This document shows positions 39,770-63,501 of a stretch of DNA of 64,000 nt, piece by piece. A program made the position numbers and the translations under genes. Position 1 is the stretch's first letter; every line of letters begins with the position of its first letter. Source of the DNA: Trypanosoma brucei (Eukaryota); assembly GCA_000002445.1 (NCBI GenBank), contig CH464491.1, positions 2,464,001-2,528,000 on the forward strand. Direction: 5' to 3'. The notes beneath the pieces are model-generated. The model had not been told where the DNA came from. It did not search any database and worked only from the letters and a program-made list of their open reading frames with translations.

Positions 39770-40261
39770 AGCGATCAGTGCGTAAAAACTTTGAGTATGA
39801 TGGTTGCACCAGGTATATCCTCTCAGTAACCTCCATAACCAACTTTGACCTCCGTGATCGCTGACCTGGTGAAGCTGACATCGCGCGATTTCGGTGGCCA
39901 GGAAAGAAGGAAGTGGGTAGATATATAACGGATAAGGGTGCGGCTTCAAGAGAAGAAAAGTATACCTGGTTGCACCCGGTGGGACTTTGTGCCTTCTTAG
40001 CTCCGGTGCGCTGACGGTTGTACGTTGGCTCTATACGTAGCGCATATGCTGCCGTACTCGGCGAGATTTCGAGCATGTAGTTTGATCATTTGTCTAGTAC
40101 GTTCACAGGTCTCCGGCAATGTTTTTGTTTTTCTTTTTACTTGCAAGTGGGTTGTGCTTGTGCTCAATACCCAGCGGGCAATAGTCTTCTGGGCTCACTC
40201 GGCTTACGCCACTGTGTTGGGTCGGCATGCACCTATGTCCCGATGTTGGTTGCATTTTTCT

Positions 40262-40311
40262 CTTATTCCCTTCCCCCACTGTCTTATTTTACACGTGTAT
40301 TTGTTGCAAAG
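40262..40311 (+). promoter_or_regulatory. Polypyrimidine tract plus AG immediately upstream of the ATG at 40312 (candidate trans-splice acceptor)
   Basis: Direct reading: tcttattcccttcccccactgtcttattttacacgtgtatttgttgcaaAG followed by ATG. This supports choosing 40312 rather than the TTG at 40090 as the gene start. Confidence 0.35.
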
Positions 40312-43014
40312 ATGAGGGTGGGGTGGACAACTCGCTCCCCAGTGAAGTCAAAATGGATATGGGAACTTGAGCCGAGCAGGCTCCGCGCTATCGACTTTTT
40401 TACCTACCGTCTCGGGCTTTTCAGCGATCCCTCCACGAAGTGTACCAGGAAGGTCGCAGTCGACGGTAGCAACGGCAAAATAAGCAATAAAAAACGAAAT
40501 GCGAATCGATTAAACAAACTGTCTGAACCTTTGAGCCCTATTCCGTCACCCTATGGCGGGGAGCTTACGAAGGCGCACAATACCGCAGGCGATGGATGCA
40601 GTAGGATTTTCTCATTCTCTCCCTTGAAGCTGATGCAACGGATGATGCGCGAGTGGGAAGAAGAGCAGCGAGAGCTTTTGTCGCGAGATGAAGAAATCCT
40701 GGCAAGGGAAGAAGCGCAAATGGCTTCTATTATGAAGCATCCATCCGCATTGTTCGGGGATGAAGCAGCGGTCCTGTACAAATTTGGCATGGGTGCCTTC
40801 GTTTCACCGAACGCACCGGGCTTCTCGGGAATTTTTCGGCAGCATTGGAAGGACTTTTTGGTCACGGAAATGGTCTACGATAGTGAGGGAGAAGATGGCA
40901 AACCACTTTCCCGCGAGCTCGATTGGACTATTCCACCACTTCCTGATTGTTTTCGTTCAGTTGATGAATCAGATACCAAATATGTGCATGGTGGCAGCAC
41001 GGCTAGCGGTGAAAACCGCATCAACAGTTTCTTTACCGTCGATATAGGAGGGCAGTTAAAACAAATAATGAAGGAAGATAGCGGCGAGGGAGATAGCAAA
41101 AGAACGGGGGTGGAACCCCTAACGGGTAATCTGTCTGGCGCAGCCTCACGAAATAAATCTCGACTAGAGGGAAACGGCCAGGATGAGGATTCGAGCGAAT
41201 TTAGGACGGGGAAGTTTTACCTTCAGTGCTACCTCCGTAAGCAGCATATTGCACACAGCGTCGCGCTCTCCAACATCGCTCAAACTCTTCGAATGCACCC
41301 CTCCTGTATATCCGTAGCCGGTATTAAGGACTACATTGGGGACACGCTGCAAAGGGTCCGGTTGCAAAATGTCACTCCAGCATCAGCGCTAGAAGCAAAT
41401 CGTGTCTTCCGCAAGAAGAAGTGGGCAATGACCCTTTCCGACTTCTCATATCATACGGAACCACTATTTCCTGGGCGGCTGTTCGGTAATCACTTTAAAA
41501 TTGTCCTTCGAGATGTGACGGTGCCAAAGACATGCATTCAACAGGCGGTGTACGAGCTCCAGACGCATGGGTTCCCGAACTATTACGGATGCCAGCGGTT
41601 CTCGTGGTTTGGTGGGACTAATGATGCTGCTTTCGCTATACTAAATCAAAACTGGTTAGCTTTCGCGTTCCGCTTTCTCGGGTATACCAGTCGTGAGCTG
41701 ACACTCCGAGAACTGCTACAGCGTGAAAAAAAATATCCGAACCCAGTACAAGACGAGTATCGTCGCAATATCGTACGGCGTCTTCGATCCATCGCAATAG
41801 AACCCAGTGAATTGGATACGGCTCCATTTCTTGCATGTCCCTCCCTTGGTGCCCCGTTGACCGCTACCGATGGTGGGCCCGTGAGCAAGAAGCAAGAGTT
41901 GATACTTCTGCAGTTACAAGGTGCGTATCTTGATTTGAGCGTGATGAGTCGGCGTCTCACAGCACAGCGTCTCTGTAGCTACTTGTGGAACCAAGTGCTA
42001 ACACTTCGGCTTCACCACTTCGGTGGTAAAGAGGTTTTGGAAGGTGATATGGTTCTACCCGAGGTGCTGCGGCGTGTGCAAACCTCACCAGAAGAACGGA
42101 CTGACTGGTACCGACAGGGTATTCATCTCGTTGAAACTGAGGAAGAAAGAGAGAGAACGTCCATTATGAATGTTATTCATCCTGGTTTCTCCTTCAATTC
42201 CATGCGGTTGCCGCAGAACGCGGTAGGGGAGTATTTTCTTCAGGTGTGTCAAAAGTACCACCTGGAATGGCACAGCCGCCACTCGAGGTTGGGGATTCAC
42301 GACTTCTTTGAGCCACCGCGCCCTATTATTCGTAAACCAATGAACCTGCGGTATGACTACGACACTGAGTCATGCAAGTTGACGCTTGAATTTTCTCTTG
42401 AGCGTGGCAGCTACGCTAATGTTGTTCTTACAGAGCTCATGAAACAAGCTCGTTGTGTTGGTTCCTCTGATATTCTTACCCTTCCCGCTCCCGATGCAAT
42501 GTGGGAGTTTGGAAACCGCGATCCTGGATACGTCACATCCCTGCAAGACATATACGAAGGATTTCAAGACGGTGTTGGGTTTGTGAATGAGGAGCACGTC
42601 CTACCTTTTGTTGGGGATGTCAAGCCGTGGGACTATAATACCGGGCCGCTCTTTCTACCGGAGAGTGCAGATCCTGTGCGCAAAGCACATCGTTGGGGAT
42701 CACGGCACCTGATTCGGAATATGGCCCGCCGGGAACAAGATGAGGAGGAAATGAGGTTGCGACTATTTGAGAAACCACTCGCCAAAACACTTAAAGATGG
42801 CGAAGTGAGCTGTTACGCCGGGCACACAGTTCCCCTTCCACCCAATGCTAAGGCGAAGAAAATATTCTTTAAAGTCCTCCGCCGGCAGCGTCGCTACCCC
42901 GGGGCACCCAAAACCACGCCACGTATCAAACGCGGTGCAGAGGTTCAAAGGAGGGAAACGGCTCGTGTGCCGTTTAAAACCATTAACAAGAATACGTGGA
43001 ACGTGACGTGGTGA
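40312..43014 (+). CDS. PUS7: tRNA pseudouridine synthase, TruD/Pus7 family
   Basis: First ATG after the polypyrimidine tract is at 40312; the track start 40090 is TTG. Catalytic motif VAGIKDYIGDTLQRV (GxKD...TxQ, with the Asp). Motif HGFPNYYGCQRFSWFGG matches NYFGxQRFG. About 900 aa, with N- and C-terminal extensions as in eukaryotic Pus7. Confidence 0.8.
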   Translation: MRVGWTTRSPVKSKWIWELEPSRLRAIDFFTYRLGLFSDPSTKCTRKVAVDGSNGKISNKKRNANRLNKLSEPLSPIPSPYGGELTKAHNTAGDGCSRIFSFSPLKLMQRMMREWEEEQRELLSRDEEILAREEAQMASIMKHPSALFGDEAAVLYKFGMGAFVSPNAPGFSGIFRQHWKDFLVTEMVYDSEGEDGKPLSRELDWTIPPLPDCFRSVDESDTKYVHGGSTASGENRINSFFTVDIGGQLKQIMKEDSGEGDSKRTGVEPLTGNLSGAASRNKSRLEGNGQDEDSSEFRTGKFYLQCYLRKQHIAHSVALSNIAQTLRMHPSCISVAGIKDYIGDTLQRVRLQNVTPASALEANRVFRKKKWAMTLSDFSYHTEPLFPGRLFGNHFKIVLRDVTVPKTCIQQAVYELQTHGFPNYYGCQRFSWFGGTNDAAFAILNQNWLAFAFRFLGYTSRELTLRELLQREKKYPNPVQDEYRRNIVRRLRSIAIEPSELDTAPFLACPSLGAPLTATDGGPVSKKQELILLQLQGAYLDLSVMSRRLTAQRLCSYLWNQVLTLRLHHFGGKEVLEGDMVLPEVLRRVQTSPEERTDWYRQGIHLVETEEERERTSIMNVIHPGFSFNSMRLPQNAVGEYFLQVCQKYHLEWHSRHSRLGIHDFFEPPRPIIRKPMNLRYDYDTESCKLTLEFSLERGSYANVVLTELMKQARCVGSSDILTLPAPDAMWEFGNRDPGYVTSLQDIYEGFQDGVGFVNEEHVLPFVGDVKPWDYNTGPLFLPESADPVRKAHRWGSRHLIRNMARREQDEEEMRLRLFEKPLAKTLKDGEVSCYAGHTVPLPPNAKAKKIFFKVLRRQRRYPGAPKTTPRIKRGAEVQRRETARVPFKTINKNTWNVTW

Positions 43015-44013: not shown

Positions 44014-44423
44014 GGTTTCCGCTGCTTTCGGCTGCCCGTACACGTGGACACAACCGCAGCATGGCAGGCAAAGGGCTGGGAAAGGAGAAGCTGGGACACT
44101 GAAGTAAGTAAATGCTGGAAAAGAGGTAAATCGCGGTGGTGTTACATTACTACAAAACTCAGGTTGCACTGGCAGCTGAATTTTTTCACTCCTCTGTGCA
44201 TGGTGTCTTGTTTGAGGGAGATGATGTAGCTTCAAACTCGTTAATTCCTGTTGTTTTGATTCCTTGGAAAGGATTTGGTGAGCACGCTCACATGGTTCTC
44301 TTTTGTGTTTGTTTGTTTTCCCTTCGCACACGCCTACAACGTAAGACACACCAATTCACCACGAGGCGGCACGCCCTCAGCTCCGCACGGTCCTCCCGTG
44401 TTGGTGTGCACGCAGGCCTGACG

Positions 44424-47321
44424 ATGACAGAGGACGAGGAACCATATGTTATGGCCTTCGAGCCCTACACAGTGCAGAGGGAAATGATGCGAACTGTTCA
44501 TTTGGCTCTTAATTCCTGGCCTCGGCACACCCCCATTGCGGCGATTGAGGTTCCCACCGGGTGTGGAAAGACGCTGGCATTGCTTTCAAGCGTGTTGCGC
44601 TACCAGGCAGGGTTGGAGAAACACACACCACAGGAGCTGGAGCAGCACTTTCGCCTGCGGAGGTGTAGGGGTCCCCCAGTGTTGCCCTCATTGTCAAGAA
44701 CGGAAATGTCGTCACGTAAATGGTGCCACTGCAAGGAAGACAGTAAACACAGTGAAGAGTCGAATGGTTTGAAAGCAAATACAGCGGACGGTGAAGAAGC
44801 TTGGCGTGTGTCGTCGTTATTTCTGAGGCAGTTCAGGCCACCGAACGGCAAACGTCTGCGTGTTGAGCTAGTAACTGAAGGATCGTTGGAACTCCGCAAG
44901 CAGCATCAATCGCCGCCATGTACGATTTTTTACGTGACGCGTACGCACGCGCAGCTTCGACAGTGTGTGGGGGAACTGCGTAAACTCAAAGGTCTGGAGA
45001 GACTGAAAATGAATATCCTGGGAAGCCGCAAGCAATACTGCATAAACCAACATGTGCTGAAGGCGTGTGCAAACAAGACGCTTCCTATAGAGGGAAACAA
45101 CCTTGGTGAAGTCTGTGACAAGCTTGTGTCTCTCGGTCAGTGCGAAGCCGTTCATGGCTACGGTGTCCTTGGTAGTAAGGCTATAACTCACCCCCTGAGC
45201 CAAGGACGGAGTGACAAAGTGTGGGATATTGAAGATTTGGTAACCGAAGGTGTAGGAATGGAGTGTTGTCCGTATTATGCCGCGAGAGACCTTGTCTTCT
45301 TCGCCCACATCAACTTTGCCACGTATCAGTATCTTCTGGACCCGCTCATTCGTCATGAGTGCAAGATGGAGGCTGCCCTAAAAAATCACTCCATCATTAT
45401 CTTTGATGAGGCACACAACGTCCCGCAAGTGTGTCAAGATGCATTATCCGTAGAGACGTCAGTGGACACGCTCCGTCTCATCCTAAATGAGATCGAGCCT
45501 CTAATACAACCCACTGTGGCGGTGGCGACGCTCAGCTACCCGCGCGAGTTCAAACTAACCAAATGGACACTTGTGGAGCTACTTTCCCTACTGTATGACG
45601 TATTCAAAGCCGTCACAGAGTTCGTGTCACCTGCGCAACCGTCGGTAAAAACGCAGCGTGGGGTACACTCCCGGCCGGTGGGGGGACAAGATGTCGAGGA
45701 AAGTGAAAGTAACCATGACGTTGAGAACAACGCAATCTTTCCAGGCGAAACCCTCGCAGAAGTGTTACGCCGCTGCATTACGGATTACATACCGATCGCT
45801 TCTAGCTGCAGCCGTCGAGGGTATGGGACCGCAGAGAGTTCAGCATCGAAAGACGGTGTAGCGATGTTTCGGCAAGTTTACGGGATTATAATGTCTCTGG
45901 GGGTCACCTTTAATCCATTCCAGTTCTCCATTTTTTGTCTTTCACTTATGAAGCGTTGGATCCTCATCATGCGCTTTATCATCCAGAAACCGAGCGCCTT
46001 TGTCCTCAGCATCAGTGACCCATTGCCAGAAAAAAACCGTAACGGTCAAGACAGCGTCCCAAGCAGTGAGGCTGGCGGCAACACCGAGGGGGTTGAGTCA
46101 GCTGTGCCATCACGAAGAATTGTTGGTATCCGATGTTTGGATGGTAGTTTGGCATTTCAGCACATCTTGAGTACCGCTCACCGTGTTGTGTTGGCCTCCG
46201 GGACACTTGCGCCGTTTCATCAGTTGGGACGAGACTTGGGAATACCACCTTCCAGTATGGCAACTTATGAAGGATTGCATGTGGCACAGAAGCATCAGTA
46301 TCGATTGGGGGTTCTCACACATACTGTGGATGCCACTCCGTTGCACTGTACCTACGGGAGTTTGAAGGATCCTTCTTTCATTAGTCAGCTTGTGGAGACA
46401 CTCGCTATGCTTGTTGAAAAAGTGGAACTTGGAGGTGTTCTCGTCTTCATGCCCAACTACACCGTAATGAAAACCATCGGGTTGCAGCTCATTTCTCGTT
46501 ACCGTGACGCAGCCCGTCAGATGGAAGGAACACCAAAGTCTTCTAGGTTCCCGCAGGTTTTCCTCGAGAGTCAGTCAGCAGCTGATTTCCCTTCAGTGCT
46601 AGATAGCTTCCGAAAGGCTACAGTTCGTGGCCCAGCCGTTTTCGCCTCTGTTTTTCGAGCGAAAGTGAGTGAAGGGATTGACTTCGCGGATTGCATGGCC
46701 CGTCTTGTCGTGTGTGTGGGAGTCCCTTTACAGCCGTTGAAATCGTGGACGGTGCAAGCACAGAGGAGATACAGTGGGGAGGAGTGGTACGTAAATGATG
46801 CGGTCCGCGCTGTTAATCAAGCCCTTGGACGCTGCATACGTCACTCACGAGATTTCGGTGCGATGGTCCTGTTGGACGACCGTTTTGAACAAATGAACCT
46901 TCAGCAATCCCTGTCAAGATGGTGCCGCGAGGAGTTGAGGGTCCACCACTCACACGCGTCGTTAGCGGATGATCTTCATGAGTTCTTTCGCACTTGCAGG
47001 GGGGGAAATGCAATAGCGAAGGATTCTCATCTCAGAGAAAACGTAAGCGGTGGAAATACCAGCCAAGGAGAAGAACTGTATTGCCGGTCACTGGAAAAAG
47101 AAAACGTCCCTCCCCCCATTAAGGAAGAACGAGTGACCAGCATCTTGGATGCACCCTTTCTCATGGGGCCTGTACTGAAGCCGAAGGTTCCAACTTACAC
47201 ACGACAGTTGAGTTGCACCGCATTAAAACTCATGTACGAAGCCCATGATGATGTCTCCCAAGTTACAGCCGAAGAGCTTCGTGAGGCACTGCGACTCTTG
47301 GAGGACGGGTTTCCGCAGTGA
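44424..47321 (+). CDS. Fe-S-cluster DNA helicase of the Rad3/XPD/RTEL1/FANCJ/Chl1 superfamily-2 family
   Basis: ATG at 44424 after a polypyrimidine tract; the track start 44136 is GTG. N-terminus FEPYTVQREMM...PTGCGKTLALLSSVL (Walker A). Four-Cys Fe-S insert CINQH...CANK...CDKL...CEA. DEAH box IIFDEAHNV. C-terminal helicase motifs VFMPNY, EGIDFAD, ALGRCIRHSRDFGAMVLLD. Confidence 0.8.
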   Translation: MTEDEEPYVMAFEPYTVQREMMRTVHLALNSWPRHTPIAAIEVPTGCGKTLALLSSVLRYQAGLEKHTPQELEQHFRLRRCRGPPVLPSLSRTEMSSRKWCHCKEDSKHSEESNGLKANTADGEEAWRVSSLFLRQFRPPNGKRLRVELVTEGSLELRKQHQSPPCTIFYVTRTHAQLRQCVGELRKLKGLERLKMNILGSRKQYCINQHVLKACANKTLPIEGNNLGEVCDKLVSLGQCEAVHGYGVLGSKAITHPLSQGRSDKVWDIEDLVTEGVGMECCPYYAARDLVFFAHINFATYQYLLDPLIRHECKMEAALKNHSIIIFDEAHNVPQVCQDALSVETSVDTLRLILNEIEPLIQPTVAVATLSYPREFKLTKWTLVELLSLLYDVFKAVTEFVSPAQPSVKTQRGVHSRPVGGQDVEESESNHDVENNAIFPGETLAEVLRRCITDYIPIASSCSRRGYGTAESSASKDGVAMFRQVYGIIMSLGVTFNPFQFSIFCLSLMKRWILIMRFIIQKPSAFVLSISDPLPEKNRNGQDSVPSSEAGGNTEGVESAVPSRRIVGIRCLDGSLAFQHILSTAHRVVLASGTLAPFHQLGRDLGIPPSSMATYEGLHVAQKHQYRLGVLTHTVDATPLHCTYGSLKDPSFISQLVETLAMLVEKVELGGVLVFMPNYTVMKTIGLQLISRYRDAARQMEGTPKSSRFPQVFLESQSAADFPSVLDSFRKATVRGPAVFASVFRAKVSEGIDFADCMARLVVCVGVPLQPLKSWTVQAQRRYSGEEWYVNDAVRAVNQALGRCIRHSRDFGAMVLLDDRFEQMNLQQSLSRWCREELRVHHSHASLADDLHEFFRTCRGGNAIAKDSHLRENVSGGNTSQGEELYCRSLEKENVPPPIKEERVTSILDAPFLMGPVLKPKVPTYTRQLSCTALKLMYEAHDDVSQVTAEELREALRLLEDGFPQ

Positions 47322-48155: not shown

Positions 48156-49202
48156 ATGGAGTGGGTTCCGTGCACCGAGCAGACGGGGTCGGTGGGCTGC
48201 CGCGAGGGGCACTGCGCAACCTCTCTTCAAGAAAAAAGTACTGGAGAAGAATGGGTTTTGGTTGTTGGGGGATATTGCGAAGGGGAGCGCGACGGCGCGG
48301 TTATGGCAGCGCGAGCAGATGGACTGCCGATGCTACGATGGGTTCGGCTGGATAAGCCCAACATGACGTGGTTCGAATGTGATGGGGCTTCGCTAACGCA
48401 CGTAACTGGCGACACCGCCTACTTCTTTGGTGGATTAAACGAGCACATGAATCACAGTAATCAGTTACTCTGTCTTTCCCTGCATCAGGGGCAACAGGGT
48501 GATCTTTCCCTCGATGTGGTGAAGGTAGAGACAACAGGAGACGTCCCTCTTCCGCGCGCGAGGCATTCAGCTGGTAGTGCCGGGCGGTATTTCGTTGTGT
48601 TCGGTGGTGAAACGGAAGATGCTGAACAAAATAATGACGGATACATCCTGGACACCGACACAATGGTATGGACACGAATTCCAACAGGGCACCAGGTGCC
48701 CAATCCACGACTTCTCGCCGGCCCTCTTGTGTTCTACTCACCCCACGGGTGCATACTTTACGGTGGGGCACACTTTGTGAACGGCGATATAAGGAGTATG
48801 TCTGACGTGTGGAACCTGCACATCCCGCTGGGAGGCACATGGTTTAACGTTTCCTATGGGGACGGCGCCCCCGCCTGTCGCTTCCCGAGGTCGAATGGTC
48901 ACGCCGGTGGCGTTCTGGGGCGGGTTGGGGGAGAAACTGTAGTGTTGTTTGTTGGAGGAAAGGATGCCGCTGAGGGGTGTGACAGAGTAAAACAGGTGCA
49001 GCCTCCGAAATCTGCTGAAGACAAATTCCATCTTCGTCTGGTAGACCCCGTGTTGGCTGGTGGTGAGGGCCCGCACTGGCGGTACACACCAGCAGCGGTA
49101 GATACACGACGTGGCGTATTGCTTTTGGGTGGTCAGTGCCGTCATCCACAGGAGGTTGCTGCCTTCCTACTAAAGCAGACGGGTGTTACTTTGCAACGGT
49201 AA
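48156..49202 (+). CDS. Kelch-repeat (beta-propeller) protein
   Basis: ATG at 48156, 348 aa. Repeated units of hydrophobic strand, then GG, then aromatic (VLVVGGY..., YFFGG, YFVVFGGE, ILYGG, VLFVGG, VLLLGG), typical of Kelch/galactose-oxidase propeller blades. Confidence 0.7.
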   Translation: MEWVPCTEQTGSVGCREGHCATSLQEKSTGEEWVLVVGGYCEGERDGAVMAARADGLPMLRWVRLDKPNMTWFECDGASLTHVTGDTAYFFGGLNEHMNHSNQLLCLSLHQGQQGDLSLDVVKVETTGDVPLPRARHSAGSAGRYFVVFGGETEDAEQNNDGYILDTDTMVWTRIPTGHQVPNPRLLAGPLVFYSPHGCILYGGAHFVNGDIRSMSDVWNLHIPLGGTWFNVSYGDGAPACRFPRSNGHAGGVLGRVGGETVVLFVGGKDAAEGCDRVKQVQPPKSAEDKFHLRLVDPVLAGGEGPHWRYTPAAVDTRRGVLLLGGQCRHPQEVAAFLLKQTGVTLQR

Positions 49203-49537
49203 CAAATAATCAACAAGGTGGAATCAGTGGAGACAATTTGGAGAGATAGTGCAGTACTGCGCCCTACTGAATTCGGGGTTGTTTCGTTATTATCGTTTAC
49301 GTTTCGTACGCATTTCTTGTTTGTCTTCGCTTTTTTTGGATATGCGTGATGTGGCGCGTCGTTTTCACACAGCCTTTTTCCCTAATGTTAGCCCTCCAAA
49401 CCCTCACCCCCTCAATCTGAAGAAAAAGAGAGGGGCTTTCGTATCCTCAGGACTCGACCGCAAGTATGTCTTTAATTTTTTTTTGTATCATCCCTCATCC
49501 GTTCACCCGCACAAAGTGTTCCAAGGTGTCGATCATC

Positions 49538-50731
49538 ATGCAGATGTTGGCCCCTGGTGCTTTCTTCAACGCATTAAAGGTCCGGGGGGTTACACACTTT
49601 TTTGGAGTTCCTGACCCCATTCTAAAATATTTCTGTGCCTTCGTGGCAAGTCACACGACACCGAAGGAACACATCATCACAGCAAACGAAGGGAATGCAG
49701 TGGCCATGGCTGCAGGTTACCATCTTGCAACTGGGGGACTCCCTTTGGTGTACATGAAAAACAGTGGCTTAGGCGATGCACTCAATCCCCTGATCTCTCT
49801 CACACACGCTGAGGCGTGCAGCATTCCCATGTTTATAGTCGTTGGTTGGCGAGGAGCTCCTGATGCTGGAAATGAGCTACCGTGTGCCGCAGAAGGGCGC
49901 TTGACCGAAGGAATCCTACGTGCTGCTGAGGTCCCGTATATCATTTTATCTTCTGCTTGTGGAAACGGGGAGCAGTCGATGGAAACAGCTCTGGATATGG
50001 CACTGAAGCACGTGCATAATTCAAGGACGCCCTATGCCTTTTTGGTACCACCAAACTTTTTTGAGGAATGCGCTTACGAAGGGGTTGGAGAAGGTATTGC
50101 TGAGCTTCCCATGACTCGCAGGGAGGCGGTTGAACAAGCACTGCGCCAAATAGACCGGGGAGATATAGTTGTGGGCGCCGCAAGCTTCCTTGCTCGTGAA
50201 ATCTTTGAAGTTCAGGAGTGTGCCGGGATGCGACACGGCCCACAATTCTTCCCAGTCGGCAGCATGGGTCATTGTTCTTCCGTAGCAGCGGGTATAGCAT
50301 TGGCCAAACCAGAAAGGCAAGTGTTTTGCTTTGATGGAGATGGCGCATTCCTTATGCACATGGGTTCATCAGCAACCATCGGCGGTGTAGCCGCCATACA
50401 TTTAATAGGTACGGGCGAAACTTCCCTCATGCGCAACTACAAACATGTCGTTTTCAACAACGGATCCCACGATTCGGCAGGTGGTCAACCCACTGTGTCT
50501 TTTGATGTATCCCTCACGCAAGTGGCGAGTGCGTGTGGTTTTAGGACTGTCCGCGAAGAACCCGTAATGGACCTTGGCGAAACTGTGCGGGCCCTTCAGG
50601 AATTAAAGAAGGCGGAAGGGCCCGCGTTCTTGGAAGTATTTGTGCGAAGGGGCGGCCATTCAAACCCACAATGTGAACTTCCCTCTTTAGATGAGAGCAA
50701 ACAAGCTCTCACTAACTGCTTGAGGGGCTAG
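49538..50731 (+). CDS. Phosphonopyruvate decarboxylase-like thiamine-diphosphate enzyme (Ppd / sulfopyruvate-decarboxylase family)
   Basis: ATG at 49538 (MQMLAP...) after a polypyrimidine tract; the track ATG at 49466 is less likely. N-terminal pyrimidine-binding region FFGVPDPILKY...EGNAVAMAAGYHLATG...YMKNSGLGDALNPLISL. C-terminal diphosphate-binding motif GDGAFLMHMGS...VFNNGSHDSAGGQ (GDG-x24-27-NN). Length of about 397 aa is typical of Ppd. Confidence 0.7.
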   Translation: MQMLAPGAFFNALKVRGVTHFFGVPDPILKYFCAFVASHTTPKEHIITANEGNAVAMAAGYHLATGGLPLVYMKNSGLGDALNPLISLTHAEACSIPMFIVVGWRGAPDAGNELPCAAEGRLTEGILRAAEVPYIILSSACGNGEQSMETALDMALKHVHNSRTPYAFLVPPNFFEECAYEGVGEGIAELPMTRREAVEQALRQIDRGDIVVGAASFLAREIFEVQECAGMRHGPQFFPVGSMGHCSSVAAGIALAKPERQVFCFDGDGAFLMHMGSSATIGGVAAIHLIGTGETSLMRNYKHVVFNNGSHDSAGGQPTVSFDVSLTQVASACGFRTVREEPVMDLGETVRALQELKKAEGPAFLEVFVRRGGHSNPQCELPSLDESKQALTNCLRG

Positions 50732-51132: not shown

Positions 51133-52605
51133 ATGTTAAGGCGTACAATTTTCCTGGGAAGGGTAACCCGCTCTTGGACCAAAGGATCTATAGTTAAGGC
51201 ATCGGCCCATTTCCCAGATTCTGTGAGGGCTGATCCCGCAGAAAGACGTAATGAAGACTCGTCTCCGAAGGAAAGCCGCACATGGTCTCTTCATGACGGC
51301 CCGTGCAGCGAACCTCTTCACGTTCCCAAACATATTCAATGGGCAACACAGAAGGTGAGAGTTTGGGGGCAACTAATGCGAGTGGATAAGGCTGCTGCAA
51401 TAAACCTCCTGCTTCAACCTTGTTACTGGGGAGCCAGTCTAGCAGTAACTCGGGCCATCGTCTGGGAGGGGGCGGATCCTGTCGTTTTGTTCGCTCCTTT
51501 CATTCCCGTACATTTGATCGTCCTGTTCGGCGCTGGTGCCTTTTTGGCTCGGGGTGCGGGTTGTATTATTAACGACATGTGTGACAGAAAGTTCGACCGA
51601 ATGGTAGAACGCACCAAAACACGGCCGCTTGCTAGCGGTGTTGTCAGCATGAAGGAGGCATCAGGCCTTCTCATAACAGTAGCTGGTTTTGCGCTTGTTA
51701 TTGCACTAAACCTGTCGCCCATGGCACTTGCTTCGGCGGTAGCGTTAGCTCCCATCGCGGCAGTTTATCCGCTCATGAAGCGTATAACCTACATGCCTCA
51801 GCTCGTTCTGGGACTTTGCTTCAACGGCGGCATTTTTGTTGGGTATGCTGCCGTGCTAAACCGCATTGATTTGGCCGTTACGCTTCCTATCTACTGCTCA
51901 GCCGTCGTGTGGACAGTTTTGTATGATACCATCTATGCGTACCAAGACAGGGCGGACGACCTGAAATGCGGTGTGAAGAGCTCGGCTATTCTTATTGGTG
52001 ACAGGAAGCATATTCTCACTTTCATGATACTCCCCATCGGCATGGGTATTCTTATTTCGGGATTGATGGTCTCACAGTCGCTTCCGTTTTACATCGGTGT
52101 CCTCTGTTGCGTTTGGTACCTTCAGGGTGTCGTTGATAACGTCAACATATACGATGCGTGGTCATGTGGTATGGGATTCCGCAGGAACGTACGATTTGCC
52201 ATCCTGGTTACTTTTTCTCTCTGCCTTGGAAACGTGTTGTGGGCACTCGCATCTGAGCACCAACCGGAAAAGGACGCCGCGAGCAACGCCATATCGGAAA
52301 AGTCGGCCTTGATGAAATTCCTTCTTTTGAATAAGGAAGCGGAACCCATGTCGTACAGCGTGCAAGATATTCGTTGGGTAGACCGTTTTGCGCATCCGGC
52401 ATTCGTGGCAGCGCAGAAGGCTCAACACGAGGGAGAGGAAAAAACGGTGGTGGTGCCGGCGTGGATGCGGCGTGAGTACCTGGGTGAGAATGTAGGGACT
52501 ATCATGCGCTTTTTTGGCGTTGACGAGGAAGCAATCCAAACTTGGCAAAAGTGGTGGTACGCGCAACTTGACCACTACAACATGTTCTCCAGCATCGCCG
52601 TTTAG
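51133..52605 (+). CDS. COQ2: 4-hydroxybenzoate polyprenyltransferase (UbiA/COQ2 family), mitochondrial
   Basis: First ATG at 51133 (MLRRTIFLGRVTRSW, presequence-like); the track start 51001 is GTG. First Asp-rich motif CIINDMCDRKFDRMVERTKTRPLASG (NDxxDxxxD). Second motif region YAYQDRADDLKCGVKSSAI. Multiple transmembrane helices. About 130 aa of hydrophilic C-terminal extension. Confidence 0.8.
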   Translation: MLRRTIFLGRVTRSWTKGSIVKASAHFPDSVRADPAERRNEDSSPKESRTWSLHDGPCSEPLHVPKHIQWATQKVRVWGQLMRVDKAAAINLLLQPCYWGASLAVTRAIVWEGADPVVLFAPFIPVHLIVLFGAGAFLARGAGCIINDMCDRKFDRMVERTKTRPLASGVVSMKEASGLLITVAGFALVIALNLSPMALASAVALAPIAAVYPLMKRITYMPQLVLGLCFNGGIFVGYAAVLNRIDLAVTLPIYCSAVVWTVLYDTIYAYQDRADDLKCGVKSSAILIGDRKHILTFMILPIGMGILISGLMVSQSLPFYIGVLCCVWYLQGVVDNVNIYDAWSCGMGFRRNVRFAILVTFSLCLGNVLWALASEHQPEKDAASNAISEKSALMKFLLLNKEAEPMSYSVQDIRWVDRFAHPAFVAAQKAQHEGEEKTVVVPAWMRREYLGENVGTIMRFFGVDEEAIQTWQKWWYAQLDHYNMFSSIAV

Positions 52606-59142: not shown

Positions 59143-61806
59143 TCAATCCCTGCTTCCTTCACTGCCTCGCCCACTGATATCCTCAGTTCCTGACCTTTTC
59201 ATCGCTTCACTGGCTTGGTCACTGCCAATCTCCTCAGCATCTACTTTTGCTGCTTCACTGGTTTGCTTACTCTCCGTGTCCTCGGTGTCTGGATCTTTTG
59301 CTGCTTCGCTTGTTCTCTCACTCGCACCTTCTGTACCAGACCTTTTCATCGCTTCACTGGCTTGGTCACTGCCAATCTCCTCAGCATCTACTTTTGCTGC
59401 TTCACTGGTTTGTTTACTCTCCGTGTCATCGTTGTCTGGATCTTTTGCTGCTTCGCTCGTTTTCTCATTCGCATCCTCTGTATCAGATGGCTTCCGCGCT
59501 TCACTTGTCCATTCACTGTCAATCTCCTCAGTGTCCGCCTCTTTTGCTGTTTCGCTTATCTGTTTACTGCCAATCTCCTCAGTCTCCGCCTCTTTTGCCG
59601 CACCACTCGCCTCGTTGCCTTCAATATCCCCGGTATCTGGATCTTTTGCTGCTTCACTGGCTTGTTTACTGCCAATCTCCTCAGCATCTTCTTCTTTTGC
59701 TGCTTCGCTCGTTTTCTCATTCGCATCCTCCGTATCAGATGGTTTCCCCGCCTCACATGACTGCTCGTCCCCAAACTGTTCATCGGCATATTCTTCATTG
59801 GCAACCTCCTGTGCGGCGCCTTCCTCATCCGCATTGGCACCTCCATCGGCAACAGCGTCCTCAGCAGCGACAGTGTCTTGCGCAATAGGAGGTTCTGTGA
59901 CTTGCCCCTCCTCAACCTCAACGTCACCTTCTCCACCAGCCCCATTCTCAACTGCAGAACGGGAGTGTTGGCTTGTGGAACCCTCGTGCAAACGCGAGGC
60001 GCTACCACCGGGGGCGCCCTCAGCGTGTTCACCCTTTGGAGCCTCAACACCACTGGTACTTCTCATACGCCCAACTGAAGAGGCGGAAGGAGGTGCCCCT
60101 GAGCCACCAAAGTTGTTTTGAGTTGCAACGGATGGCAGGGACAGCTCATGTCCCAGTCCGAGGGAACGTTCGTAGAGGGCAATTATGTCGGCTGAGGCGG
60201 ACAGTTTATCTTCATCTTCGCAGATTCGTTTAGCGTATGGTTCGAGTACTTGCCTGAATTGTTCATCCCCAACATTCTCAACAAACTCCAGCACAAGATG
60301 ATTATCTGACGCCTCTTTCACGTTGAATTTCGTGAACCACGGGGTTAAAACAGTGAACACTCCATTTTCGCCCGTTTCTTCAAGTTGGATCACGTTGGGA
60401 ATCCCACAAATCTCCACCTTAAAGGCAGCCTCCGTTTCTCCACTCGAAGAGAGTCGGCTGAGAGGCGGTAAAACAACTTGGCCTCCTTCCTTGGCGTTCT
60501 CGATCTGGTTCACTTGGCCGGCCTCATCACAACAATAATAAAACGGTTTAGCGTCAGTCACTTCTGACGTGCAGTGGCAGATGACTGTATATGCGAGTGT
60601 GGGGTAGTTTTTGAGTAGCGTACCCCCTGCCAACTCATCCGCCAATTCCTGCCGCACTCCAGTAAGTTCCTCAAGTTTGTCACCGTTGCATGATATCAGG
60701 AGTTGAGCCAGTTTAGCGTAAGCAATGCTTCCAGACGGATATTTCTCTGCCGCAGCGTGACACATAATGTGAATATTTTCCGCAGCGACGTTGCAACCGC
60801 TCAGATAAGCTTCCACAGTGGGTAAATCGGCGACAAGAGCCAGAGCGTCCTCCGCATCCTTCTCCGCCTCCTCACATGACATGAGAACGAACCGGCTGTT
60901 ACCCGAGCCATCCGGCTGTATTGCCAAGACTCGATGCCATATCTCCGGTTTCCATTCTGTACGGGCATCGCAGTGGGAACTGAGCACATTGACGAAGCTC
61001 CCAGTTAGTGCGGTGTCGTCTGCGGGCTGGTCCCCAGACGCCTTGCGTTTGCCGCTATCAGCGGGTGTTTCTTCGCTCTTGCTCAAGAAAGGGAAGACGT
61101 TGATAAAAGCCGTCTCTATCGCCTGACCGGCAGTCCACTTGTCGAGTGCACTGACGCTTACTTTATCACCATCAACACCGATAACCTCCGCAAGAGTACT
61201 CTCCTCTTTAGCAGAGAGAGGCCTGGCCGTCCCGACGTGCTCAAGTATGGCACGCATAAAGGACTCCCAGAAGACTTCAGACTCCCCTTCACCAAAGTAA
61301 CGCCCCCAAAAGTCAAGCAATGGCTTGCTTTCCGTGCACTCCTTGGCGGGTTTTTGGGAGCGGCACAGCTCAATAACGTAATTGATTATCTTGGGTGTGT
61401 TAATGCCCTCTATAGAGGTACGTTTCCTGCCTTCTTTAAAAAATACAAAGTAAGACTTCGATTTTCCGCGCCGGCTCTCAAGGATATCCTTCCAGAACGG
61501 TGCCAAGGATTCTCGAAACTTTACCTTGTCATCTGTTTTCATGTGCTGATGGTGCTCCTCTGTCTGGTCAATGCTCTCGAGAATGGAGTTGCACTCCACG
61601 GAGAGAAAACGAAGATACGCCTGATCAGAAGCGTCCATTTGCAAGCGCCTAAAGGTCTCAGACAGCGCCTTGCTAAGTCCCCACTCGGAACTGTACACAT
61701 CTAGTACCGCCACCCCATGTTGCTCATGTATAAGCCGAAGCTCCTGCTCCAGTTTCACGGCATTTGTGATGTCCTGTACAATTTCTGTGCGGTTTTGCTG
61801 TTGCAT
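59143..61806 (-). CDS. Hypothetical protein with a thioredoxin-like N-terminal region lacking CxxC and a C-terminal acidic tandem-repeat array (51-aa unit)
   Basis: First ATG at 61806; the track start 61824 is TTG. N-terminus VAVLDVYSSEWGLSKAL resembles a thioredoxin-fold strand-loop with the CxxC replaced. The C-terminal about 200 aa consist of SEAAKDPDTEDTESKQTSEAAKVDAEEIGSDQASEAMKRSGTE repeats. Confidence 0.6.
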   Translation of the reverse strand: MQQQNRTEIVQDITNAVKLEQELRLIHEQHGVAVLDVYSSEWGLSKALSETFRRLQMDASDQAYLRFLSVECNSILESIDQTEEHHQHMKTDDKVKFRESLAPFWKDILESRRGKSKSYFVFFKEGRKRTSIEGINTPKIINYVIELCRSQKPAKECTESKPLLDFWGRYFGEGESEVFWESFMRAILEHVGTARPLSAKEESTLAEVIGVDGDKVSVSALDKWTAGQAIETAFINVFPFLSKSEETPADSGKRKASGDQPADDTALTGSFVNVLSSHCDARTEWKPEIWHRVLAIQPDGSGNSRFVLMSCEEAEKDAEDALALVADLPTVEAYLSGCNVAAENIHIMCHAAAEKYPSGSIAYAKLAQLLISCNGDKLEELTGVRQELADELAGGTLLKNYPTLAYTVICHCTSEVTDAKPFYYCCDEAGQVNQIENAKEGGQVVLPPLSRLSSSGETEAAFKVEICGIPNVIQLEETGENGVFTVLTPWFTKFNVKEASDNHLVLEFVENVGDEQFRQVLEPYAKRICEDEDKLSASADIIALYERSLGLGHELSLPSVATQNNFGGSGAPPSASSVGRMRSTSGVEAPKGEHAEGAPGGSASRLHEGSTSQHSRSAVENGAGGEGDVEVEEGQVTEPPIAQDTVAAEDAVADGGANADEEGAAQEVANEEYADEQFGDEQSCEAGKPSDTEDANEKTSEAAKEEDAEEIGSKQASEAAKDPDTGDIEGNEASGAAKEAETEEIGSKQISETAKEADTEEIDSEWTSEARKPSDTEDANEKTSEAAKDPDNDDTESKQTSEAAKVDAEEIGSDQASEAMKRSGTEGASERTSEAAKDPDTEDTESKQTSEAAKVDAEEIGSDQASEAMKRSGTEDISGRGSEGSRD
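59186..59760. repeat. 153-nt (51-codon) tandem repeat, about 3.5 copies with internal sub-repeats, inside the - strand CDS 59143-61806
   Basis: Direct reading: gaccttttcatcgcttcactggcttggtcactgccaatctcctcagcatctacttttgctgcttcactgg... recurs at 59186 and 59339, with degenerate copies further on. Plus-strand ORFs 59138-60121, 59215-59760 and 59247-59888 are repeat shadows. Confidence 0.85.
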
Positions 61807-63501
61807 TACCACGCAGTAAAACAAGACACTTATAAGTCAACTGCAGTAAACCTTCTAAGCACTGCACCGTGGAGGGATGTGCGTCGAAGAATTGCGGGGG
61901 AAACGGTAGGAAAGAGATAGTCGAAAGGGGTTGCGGAACATGATAAGCACAGAAAGAATACTGAAATCGGCATTTTTTTGTCAGAGGGGAAAGGAAAAAG
62001 AAAAAGAAAATTTCCCTCCCAGACACATGGAAGATAACTAAATAATACTGATAACAACGAGACACACAACGCACAGTAATCACCAGCGTTTTTCTTCCTT
62101 CCCTTGGCATGGTTCGGTTCCACCCCACATAGATTTCGCATTCAATAAAAGAAAAAAAGAAAACATCATCAATCTTTCCCCCTCGGGGGGGGGGAGAGGG
62201 AATGATTGTTTCAAATTCCCCCGCTCCATCCTCACTACAGGGCTACATGCAAGCAAGGTCAACAGTTCACAAACAAACAGACAAAGGAAGGGATCTTTTC
62301 AGATGCGGGTCCCACAATTCCAACAGAACTGCGCCGTTGGCCGTCTCTGCTCTACTCCACAGTTTGAACATGCCTTCAGCAGTTCCTGCGCATGGGAGGC
62401 GTCCAGTGGGGGGAGCCGCGACGGCACGCAATTTCTAACGCCCCCGTCACGGCCGTGAGGACACGCGCCGACGGACGCGTTCGCAGGACTGTGAGGAGGC
62501 GAAACACTAACAATCCCTCCTAGCACAGCCCCTTCAGATGCAACGGGGTTTGTGCAACGTAACTTCCCCTTATTATTCGCATGCAGAAGGCGCAAGGATG
62601 GATGTTTACTTTGGGGAGAGGGGAGCTGCAAAGGTTCTTGCGTATTCGCTCCCTGCCGCTGAGCCGCTCCACTCGTGCTGCGCACCCGCGGGGGAGAAGC
62701 GACTGCGTCGCTGGAGTTGCGGCGCTTCGAGGAATGTGTCGCGGGACAAGTAGCTTGAACGTCTTCCCAAATCACTTGCAGCTCCTCCAGTTTCAGTTCC
62801 AACTGGGACAGCTCTACCTTCTCCTCCCCTTCCATACTGAAATTTTTCGATTAGTCAGTATACGCGCATATTCGTGTGACGAACGGCAAGGTGTTGAGAG
62901 AATGAAATAGGGGAGAGAGTACGTAGATGTATGCATTTACAAATAAATAAATACATATATATGTATATATATATATATGTGTGTATCAGTGTAAAGGTGA
63001 AAATGAACAAACAAAAAGTGTGGACACGAAAATCGGAGATGAACGACGCCCTCCATCCCGCCCTCGGGGTGCCTGTCCATCACTTGGTAACACGGCAAAA
63101 AGGGAAGAAGCAAATTTCTTTTATCTCCCATATCACATCCCCCACACCGTCAGTGTATGTGTTTCTCCTTCAAGCATTTCCGTTCCTTCCTATACGCATG
63201 TGTGCACACCCGCGCACGTGTGCCGTGACACATCTGGCCAACTTGTCTTATGCCCCTTGCGGTAAAATACGGAAGAAGGAGCTTCGCCCCCTCTTCGCCT
63301 CTTCACCTCCGCCCAGCCGTCAATGTTATACCCTCTGGAGGCAGCGACGCCGACACGGCACCACGGCCGCCACAGCATTACAGAACAACAGCAACAAAAC
63401 ATACAAACAGAAAGAAGAATGAGGGGGAAGAAAAAGAGAGAGAACAGTAATGTCCATTTAGAAAAAATGGCGTCGTTTTTTCTTGCTCTTTTTCATTTCC
63501 T

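Follow-up and report, generated by a model that had tools for sequence, protein, structure and literature searches.

Does a gene resembling phosphonopyruvate decarboxylase (Ppd) in Trypanosoma brucei mean that this parasite makes aminoethylphosphonate (AEP), or has the gene outlived the pathway in which its relatives work? The question is raised by an open reading frame (ORF) at 49538..50731 on the + strand of a 64,000-nucleotide stretch of contig CH464491.1 (assembly GCA_000002445.1, positions 2,464,001 to 2,528,000), hereafter the window, to which all coordinates refer unless another locus is named. The gene itself is already known, having been annotated 'phosphonopyruvate decarboxylase-like' since the 2005 genome; in the passage of PMC7954300 that cites them, Berriman et al. 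(2005) linked it to glycosylphosphatidylinositol-anchor biosynthesis and a bacterial origin. No published analysis of its orphan status, its rate acceleration or its motif loss was found in the literature searched. The reading that we favor, at a probability of about one half, is that the gene encodes an orphaned and remodelled Ppd homologue, which may have kept a working thiamine diphosphate (ThDP) scaffold and would act on a substrate other than phosphonopyruvate.

The protein belongs to the Ppd family

The coding sequence specifies 397 amino acids plus a stop codon, and its product is 100% identical to XP_828999/Q383Z4 of T. brucei brucei TREU927 ('phosphonopyruvate decarboxylase-like protein, putative'), encoded on a 5.26-Mb chromosome. 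Pfam searches identified a TPP_enzyme_N (PYR) domain at residues 8-111 (49559..49870, + strand; 59.5 bits) and a TPP_enzyme_C (PP) domain at residues 236-367 (50243..50638, + strand; 50.3 bits), with no middle domain. The PYR domain holds the cofactor-activating Glu51 (49688-49690), which sits in the sequence ANEGNA, and the NSGLG motif of the pyrimidine pocket, where N75, S76, G77 and G79 are conserved. In the PP domain, GSMGH (G241-H245), DGDGA (50333-50347) and NNGSHDSAGGQPT (50456-50494) are intact; the GDG triplet occupies residues 267-269 (50336-50344) and the NN pair residues 307-308 (50456-50461). Their spacing of 37 residues is due to a 12-residue insert common to other eukaryotic homologues. 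Every ThDP/Mg2+ motif (E51, GDG, NN, GSMGH) is therefore present, and HDSxGGQPT is intact as well. The two-domain architecture with a GDG...NN motif, which had been proposed for this ORF from its letters alone, is borne out by these domains and motif positions.

Among NCBIfam hidden Markov models (HMMs), the best match was the phosphonopyruvate decarboxylase model TIGR03297, with 329 bits (E 3e-98) against an equivalog cut-off of 312.5, a narrow pass. The orthologues of the stercorarian trypanosomes T. cruzi, T. rangeli, T. grayi, T. theileri and T. melophagium scored 444-452 bits on this model, about 120 bits above the T. brucei protein; kinetoplastid-like metagenomic sequences scored 374-465, a Clostridium protein 521, and the homologues of Strigomonas and Novymonas 268 and 243. 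Membership in the sulfopyruvate decarboxylase family (ComDE) was rejected on HMM scores, which fell below the cut-offs of the models TIGR03845/TIGR03846 (82 bits versus 221.5 for the beta subunit and 64.8 versus 147.95 for alpha). Acetolactate synthase (ALS) models gave about 50 bits against cut-offs of more than 500, the best being 51 versus 538 over the PP domain only. Membership in the ALS or pyruvate decarboxylase (PDC) families was rejected because the scores lie far under the cut-offs and because those enzymes, of about 550-600 residues, have three domains, including the middle domain that is lacking here.

The predicted fold agrees with this assignment. An AlphaFold2 model of the T. brucei protein (pLDDT 87, pTM 0.85) was compared with known structures using Foldseek, and its two domains superposed on RhiE (TM 0.85) and RhiF (TM 0.84), the subunits of RhiEF, an experimentally validated and crystallised Ppd (PMC12141560). 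ALS- and PDC-type targets gave TM values of 0.24-0.29 (TMt, normalised by target chain length). The protein is a Ppd-family homologue and orthologue by HMM cut-off, two-domain architecture, cofactor motifs and syntenic position. What it does not show are the near-invariant residues that are specific to the family.

Ppd-specific residues are lost and cofactor motifs are kept

The protein was aligned with 117 reference Ppds, in which 94 columns are at least 95% conserved. It departs from the consensus at 26 of the 94, when the reference Ppds themselves depart at a median of 1 (95th percentile 3) and stercorarian trypanosomes at 1-2; in Leishmaniinae, Strigomonas and Novymonas the count is 34-42. 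The changes are clustered, with 13 adjacent pairs versus 6.9 expected (p 0.002), and fall within five family motifs. The near-invariant set that was examined and is not retained comprises GVPDS, YMQNSGxGN, DEPQH, STTGxxSRE, RDF and DLGRPTTTP.

Near the N-terminus, GVPDPILK (49604..49627, + strand) stands in place of the canonical GVPDSLLK; the serine at this position, S27, is present in 99% of the 117 Ppds and in RhiE. YMQNSGxGN has become YMKNSGLGD (Q74K, N80D). The loop K-DEPQH-VAQGRL is degenerate in the alignment, reading G-NELPC-AAEGRL within GWRGAPDAGNELPCAAEGRL (49844..49903, + strand; D112N, P114L, Q115P, H116C, Q119E), and D112 and H116 of this motif are found in RhiE too. At the start of the PP domain, VVSTTGMPSRE is replaced by VVGAASFLARE in VVGAASFLAREIFE (50168..50209, + strand), which stands in place of the canonical VVSTTGMPSREVFE; the alignment shows T214A, T215A, G216S and S219A with R220 and E221 retained, and the pattern ST.G..SR[DE] is common to RhiF. 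Finally, the C-terminal KGNR-x-DLGRPTTTP is lost, the corresponding RGGH-SNPQCELPSL lying in RGGHSNPQCELPSL (50648..50689, + strand; R374H, L377P, G378Q, R379C, P380E, P384L). The AlphaFold2 model is least confident exactly in the altered loops, with a pLDDT of 66-75 in the DEPQH-equivalent loop and 65 at the C-terminal motif. Seven of the lost residues (S27, Q74, D112, H116, T214, G216 and S219) are kept even in RhiEF.

Most of the lost side chains carry a hydroxyl or amide group or are cationic (Ser, Thr, Gln, Asp, His, Arg), and Ala, Pro, Cys, Gln and the like have taken their places (S27P, Q74K, D112N, H116C, T214A, T215A, G216S, S219A, R226Q, R374H and R379C). We take the altered positions to match sites of substrate contact in other ThDP decarboxylases, namely the loop after GxPG (D28 of PDC, S26 of BFDC), the loop in which PDC has its HH motif and AHAS its FQE motif, the beginning of the PP domain and the C-terminal lid.

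None of the changes touches the cofactor site: in the 21 columns that we chose to represent it (NEG, NSGxG, GSMGH, DGDGA..MH.G and NN), 0 of 21 have changed (hypergeometric P ~4e-4). The Pfam scores provide a check that is independent of the choice of columns, the N and C domains of the T. brucei protein scoring 59.5 and 50.3 bits versus 67-70 and 44-51 for the stercorarian orthologues. An intact cofactor machinery combined with lost family residues is what would be expected if the phosphonate pocket had lost constraint or been reshaped and ThDP chemistry were still under selection.

The gene has evolved rapidly but not at random

Substitution rates were compared by the Tajima relative-rate test, with a metagenomic kinetoplastid as outgroup. 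The Ppd gene carries 65 changes unique to T. brucei and 19 unique to T. cruzi (ratio 3.4, p 5e-7). The corresponding counts for three genes of the same locus are 57 and 52 for the TruD pseudouridine synthase, 54 and 70 for a DEAD_2 helicase, and 25 and 18 for a Kelch-repeat protein, none of them significant. The asymmetry of the Ppd gene holds over five stercorarian species and nine outgroups (p 2e-4 to 2e-11), and the T. brucei gene has 3-5 times as many lineage-specific substitutions as that of any stercorarian trypanosome. Amino acid identity gives the same picture: Ppd is 75-82% identical among stercorarians and 56% identical to T. brucei, the respective values for Kelch being 61-76% and 54-59%. 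Because the neighbors show no rate asymmetry and Kelch no such contrast in identity, the acceleration is specific to the gene and not lineage-wide. As a basis for dN/dS, the T. equiperdum copy is a single synonymous nucleotide apart from the T. brucei gene, and T. cruzi is saturated.

The three- to fivefold excess of substitutions and the loss of 26 of 94 near-invariant residues would also be left by a decaying relic, that is, a functionless gene whose constraint was relaxed when the AEP pathway was lost and which has not yet been stopped or deleted. Outright loss is known at the same locus. In T. vivax (GCA_021307395.1, SOPI01000131.1; L006:9114-9638), the gene for a UbiA-family prenyltransferase follows directly after the Kelch gene, with 526 bp between them and Ppd missing; a tblastn search across the 17-kb locus detected no Ppd remnant, and the loss is a clean deletion. 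No T. congolense Ppd was present among the homology-search hits, though the T. congolense Kelch neighbor is in the database. The intact frame of the T. brucei gene is not decisive either, since the ORF stayed open in 4-21% of neutral replicates.

Several observations nevertheless make decay unlikely, although it is the main rival of the favored explanation. The changes are not random, given their clustering and their avoidance of the cofactor columns, and the superfamily Pfam scores are essentially unchanged in a protein whose model folds confidently. The 56% identity to stercorarians matches that of the constrained neighbors (54-60%) and is a long way from the outcome of prolonged neutral evolution, and the neutral simulation ignores indels, which would close the ORF sooner. 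In addition, the homologues in Leishmaniinae, a group likewise reported to be without PEP (phosphoenolpyruvate) mutase, have dN/dS values of 0.16-0.17, close to those of the neighboring Kelch genes (0.14-0.19) and indicative of purifying selection. A family member that is under purifying selection where PEP mutase is reported missing can be retained for a role independent of that enzyme, and this shows that the Ppd family in trypanosomatids can persist for such a role.

The AEP pathway is reported to be missing from T. brucei

AEP-ceramide has been found only in stercorarian trypanosomes, T. brucei yielding traces of it only upon feeding with AEP, and PEP mutase is stated to be absent from T. 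brucei (PMC5648825). A comparative genomic study lists AEP transaminase among the genes that T. brucei lacks (PMC6201504). Within the 64-kb window, tblastn with bacterial queries found no homologue of PEP mutase or AEP transaminase (best E 0.8), in line with the earlier remark that the partner PEP mutase is not encoded here. Southern and Western analyses in the 2003 work of Sarkar and colleagues on the T. cruzi PEP mutase reportedly found that enzyme to be present in neither T. brucei nor Leishmania.

These reports bear directly on whether the gene is a genuine Ppd working in an AEP pathway. The best profile is TIGR03297, above its cut-off; the gene is orthologous and syntenic to a T. cruzi gene annotated as Ppd; and Glu51, GDG...NN and HDSxGGQPT are intact. 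Against these stand the organism itself, which is reported to have no PEP mutase, no AEP transaminase and no AEP, the lack of a partner gene in the window, the deficit of about 120 bits relative to the stercorarian orthologues and the loss of seven residues that the validated RhiEF shares with the family. We consider a working Ppd improbable: the T. brucei protein is probably not a functional step of an AEP pathway, and the gene probably does something else or is decaying.

The sequence-only reading thus stands in one part and falls in the other. Its assignment to the Ppd family is confirmed by the HMM search, in which neither ALS nor PDC, the matches that it had named as evidence against itself, came out best. 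Its placement of the gene in the phosphonate pathway is not supported on the published evidence: it had argued from the biology of T. cruzi, and the product is identical to a T. brucei protein; it had also named a genome without PEP mutase as grounds for abandoning the pathway interpretation, and such a genome is what the literature describes for T. brucei. Phosphonate metabolism in T. brucei and Leishmania, as drawn in KEGG-style maps, should not be deduced from the Ppd-like gene.

An old kinetoplastid gene at its ancestral locus

Upstream of the Ppd-like gene lie, all on the + strand, the genes for TruD (40243-43014), the DEAD_2 helicase (44292-47321), with a gap between these two, and the Kelch-repeat protein ('galactose oxidase central domain'; 48156..49202); the UbiA-family prenyltransferase gene follows downstream (51133..52605, + strand). 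TruD and the helicase are syntenic and served as rate controls, Kelch as synteny anchor and rate control, and UbiA as synteny anchor. The order TruD, small ORF, DEAD_2 helicase, Kelch, Ppd, UbiA is the same in the window, T. cruzi and T. equiperdum. A metagenomic kinetoplastid shares it as far as Ppd, with UbiA not recorded downstream, and the Kelch-Ppd-like pair is kept in the Leishmaniinae Leptomonas pyrrhocoris, L. braziliensis and L. tarentolae. A gene order common to kinetoplastids implies old vertical inheritance, and the gene is an old, vertically inherited kinetoplastid gene at its ancestral locus. Recent horizontal transfer or contamination was rejected, the locus being syntenic across kinetoplastids.

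The metagenomic kinetoplastid is represented by scaffolds of the ENA metagenome GROS21 (L003/L004), which carry TruD, small ORF, helicase, Kelch and a canonical Ppd; they presumably derive from an uncultured kinetoplastid and provided the outgroup used here.

ORFs of at least 300 amino acids up to 55.3 kb are all on the + strand (window positions 1-55294) and belong to a single polycistronic unit, beyond which the first large ORF to follow (59143-61824) runs on the - strand. Together with a flip in the sign of the GC skew at about 56 kb, this change of strand points to a convergent strand-switch region between about 55.3 and 59 kb. The window yielded no tRNA genes. The L. major orthologue is likewise located at a convergent strand-switch region (PMC7954300).

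The Leishmaniinae homologues and the fates of the gene

The Leishmania orthologues were located through synteny, and the Leishmaniinae pair corresponds to L. major LmjF.28.1590 and LmjF.28.1580, whose 'key role' is described as still unknown (PMC7954300). In the Leishmaniinae (Leptomonas, L. braziliensis, L. tarentolae) and in Novymonas, the activating glutamate E51, otherwise conserved universally, is replaced by Ser or Cys, and NN reads ND in several of them. The Ppd-like genes of Leptomonas pyrrhocoris (L007:9743-10999), L. braziliensis (L008:8362-9609) and L. tarentolae (L009:8654-9943) encode TN[SC]GNA and have lost HDS. They have the appearance of conserved pseudoenzymes or of unusual ThDP proteins.

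Such proteins suggest that the T. brucei product, too, might have a non-catalytic role, structural or regulatory. The loss of E51 in genes held at a dN/dS of 0.16 means that the family can be retained beyond canonical ThDP catalysis, and T. brucei and Leishmaniinae are both altered at S27, N80D, V93A, Q115, H116, T214, T215, S219 and 374-380. We judge this role very improbable for T. brucei, which retains Glu51, GDG, NN and HDS with no reason to do so if the protein were non-catalytic, and whose changes arose independently of those in Leishmaniinae, because the stercorarian trypanosomes carry the canonical residues.

Where PEP mutase is reported absent, the gene has thus met three fates: deletion in T. 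vivax, remodelling in T. brucei, and deeper divergence with loss of the activating glutamate in Leishmaniinae. The locus offers a natural series of what becomes of an enzyme after its pathway is lost, running from deletion through remodelling to a pseudoenzyme. Erosion of the Ppd gene may extend to further lineages. Two kinetoplastid-like Logan contigs of 1.7 and 2.8 kb, P0012 and P0008, carry homologues that have partly degenerated in these motifs too; of the 94 conserved columns, P0012 has changed at 16 and P0008 at 11, and P0012 also has S27P and is without DEPQH.

A remodelled ThDP enzyme as the favored explanation

The enzyme is presumably a canonical Ppd in those trypanosomes that make AEP, T. 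cruzi and T. rangeli among them. ThDP would be bound between the PYR and PP domains and activated by Glu51, and its ylide would attack C2 of phosphonopyruvate; CO2 would then leave and phosphonoacetaldehyde be released, drawing the unfavourable equilibrium of PEP mutase forward. In the lineage of T. brucei, which has reportedly lost both the partner enzymes and the product, the gene would have been orphaned without being deleted as in T. vivax. It would have been kept as an intact ThDP scaffold with all cofactor motifs preserved, evolving 3-5 times faster, as polar and cationic residues specific to Ppd were exchanged for small neutral ones. Conservation within the family and homology to other ThDP enzymes suggest that it is the phosphonate pocket to which the lost residues belong. 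On this reading a new substrate would have taken the place of phosphonopyruvate. The T. brucei protein would then no longer bind a phosphonate and, if still catalytic, would decarboxylate or ligate a different, probably uncharged, 2-oxo acid.

Several points weigh against this explanation. The protein still clears the equivalog cut-off of TIGR03297, and it is by conservation and by homology to other ThDP enzymes that the lost residues are tied to phosphonate binding. The 21 cofactor columns were selected by the analyst. An open reading frame is weak evidence of function, given the 4-21% of replicates in which it survived a substitution-only simulation, and T. vivax does without the gene entirely. 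The absence of PEP mutase from the T. brucei genome is taken from published statements, including what the 2003 study by Sarkar and colleagues is reported to have found.

One candidate activity can be named, as a speculation and a long shot. The T. brucei protein might be a ThDP-dependent decarboxylase of indolepyruvate, and possibly of phenylpyruvate or 4-hydroxyphenylpyruvate, that forms the aldehyde in aromatic amino-acid catabolism, the compound from which tryptophol and indoleacetate derive. T. brucei is reported to produce tryptophol, indoleacetate and indolepyruvate (PMC6027508). Production of tryptophol and indoleacetate implies a step in which indolepyruvate is decarboxylated. We know of no enzyme that has been assigned to this step in T. 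brucei. Such a substrate would be compatible with a pocket in which Ala, Pro and Cys have taken over from polar and cationic residues. If this idea were correct, a phosphonate enzyme would have been recruited after the loss of its pathway to make metabolites that act on the host. For a ThDP-dependent activity of African trypanosomes to which no gene has been assigned, the locus supplies a candidate that lends itself to study.

The start of the coding sequence

The uninterrupted + strand ORF extends from 49466 to 50731 (421 residues), and position 49538 corresponds to Met25 of this ORF, giving the protein of 397 residues. The TREU927 gene model begins at 49466, 24 codons 5' of 49538. The orthologues have 397-398 residues, and the T. 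b. gambiense and T. equiperdum gene models agree with the start at 49538. Between the two ATGs, just 5' of 49538, a polypyrimidine tract with AG after it occupies about 49470-49523. From the position of this tract and the length of the orthologues, we infer that 49538 is more likely than 49466 to be the true start.

Some gene models are probably overlong at the 5' end. The TREU927 model includes the 24 extra codons at 49466-49537 (421 versus 397 residues), and many T. cruzi models include 53 extra hydrophobic N-terminal codons (L001:10001-10159; 452 versus 398-399 residues). Neither extension is kept across species.

Comparison with known systems

An HMM check taken alone would back the Ppd label and suggest that T. 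brucei has a phosphonate pathway, and with it a parasite-specific drug target; the comparative evidence speaks against this. Among the closest known systems is the single-chain Ppd (EC 4.1.1.82), exemplified by Bacteroides fragilis Ppd and the putative Ppd of T. cruzi. The T. brucei protein shares with it the PYR and PP layout without a middle domain, the cofactor glutamate, GDG...NN and HDSxGGQPT. It differs in its score (329 bits, as against 444-452 for stercorarians and 521 for Clostridium), in the alteration of 26 of 94 conserved residues, in having no adjoining PEP mutase gene and in residing in an organism reported to lack the pathway and its product. At a bacterial Ppd locus, that of Clostridium swellfunianum (L005), the genes for PEP mutase, Ppd and an aminotransferase adjoin, whereas the T. 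brucei gene is isolated. In this bacterium, PEP mutase is fused to an N-terminal cytidylyltransferase domain (L005:6698-7996) and is followed by Ppd, a nucleotidyltransferase and the aminotransferase, a typical cell-surface phosphonate cluster.

RhiEF of Bacillus subtilis (PDB 9IZ3/9IZ4) has the same fold and shares the cofactor motifs at about 25% identity overall. It is built from two chains and retains, in the numbering of the T. brucei protein, S27, Q74, D112, H116, T214, G216 and S219, all of which are replaced in T. brucei. ComDE, the sister family, is likewise built on the two-domain ThDP scaffold and takes an anionic 3-substituted pyruvate as substrate; it serves coenzyme M synthesis in archaea and bacteria as an enzyme of two subunits, and the T. 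brucei protein scores far below its cut-offs. The 'phosphonopyruvate decarboxylase' of Leishmaniinae (e.g., LmjF.28.1580) resembles the T. brucei protein in its syntenic position beside Kelch, in the loss of DEPQH, STTG..S and DLGRPTTTP, and in the reported absence of PEP mutase from the organisms that carry it. In those proteins, however, Glu51 is Cys or Ser, HDS is lost and 34-42 of the 94 columns differ, and the related sequences of Novymonas (243 bits) and Strigomonas (268 bits) fall below the TIGR03297 cut-off. The T. brucei protein remains above it and keeps its catalytic apparatus.

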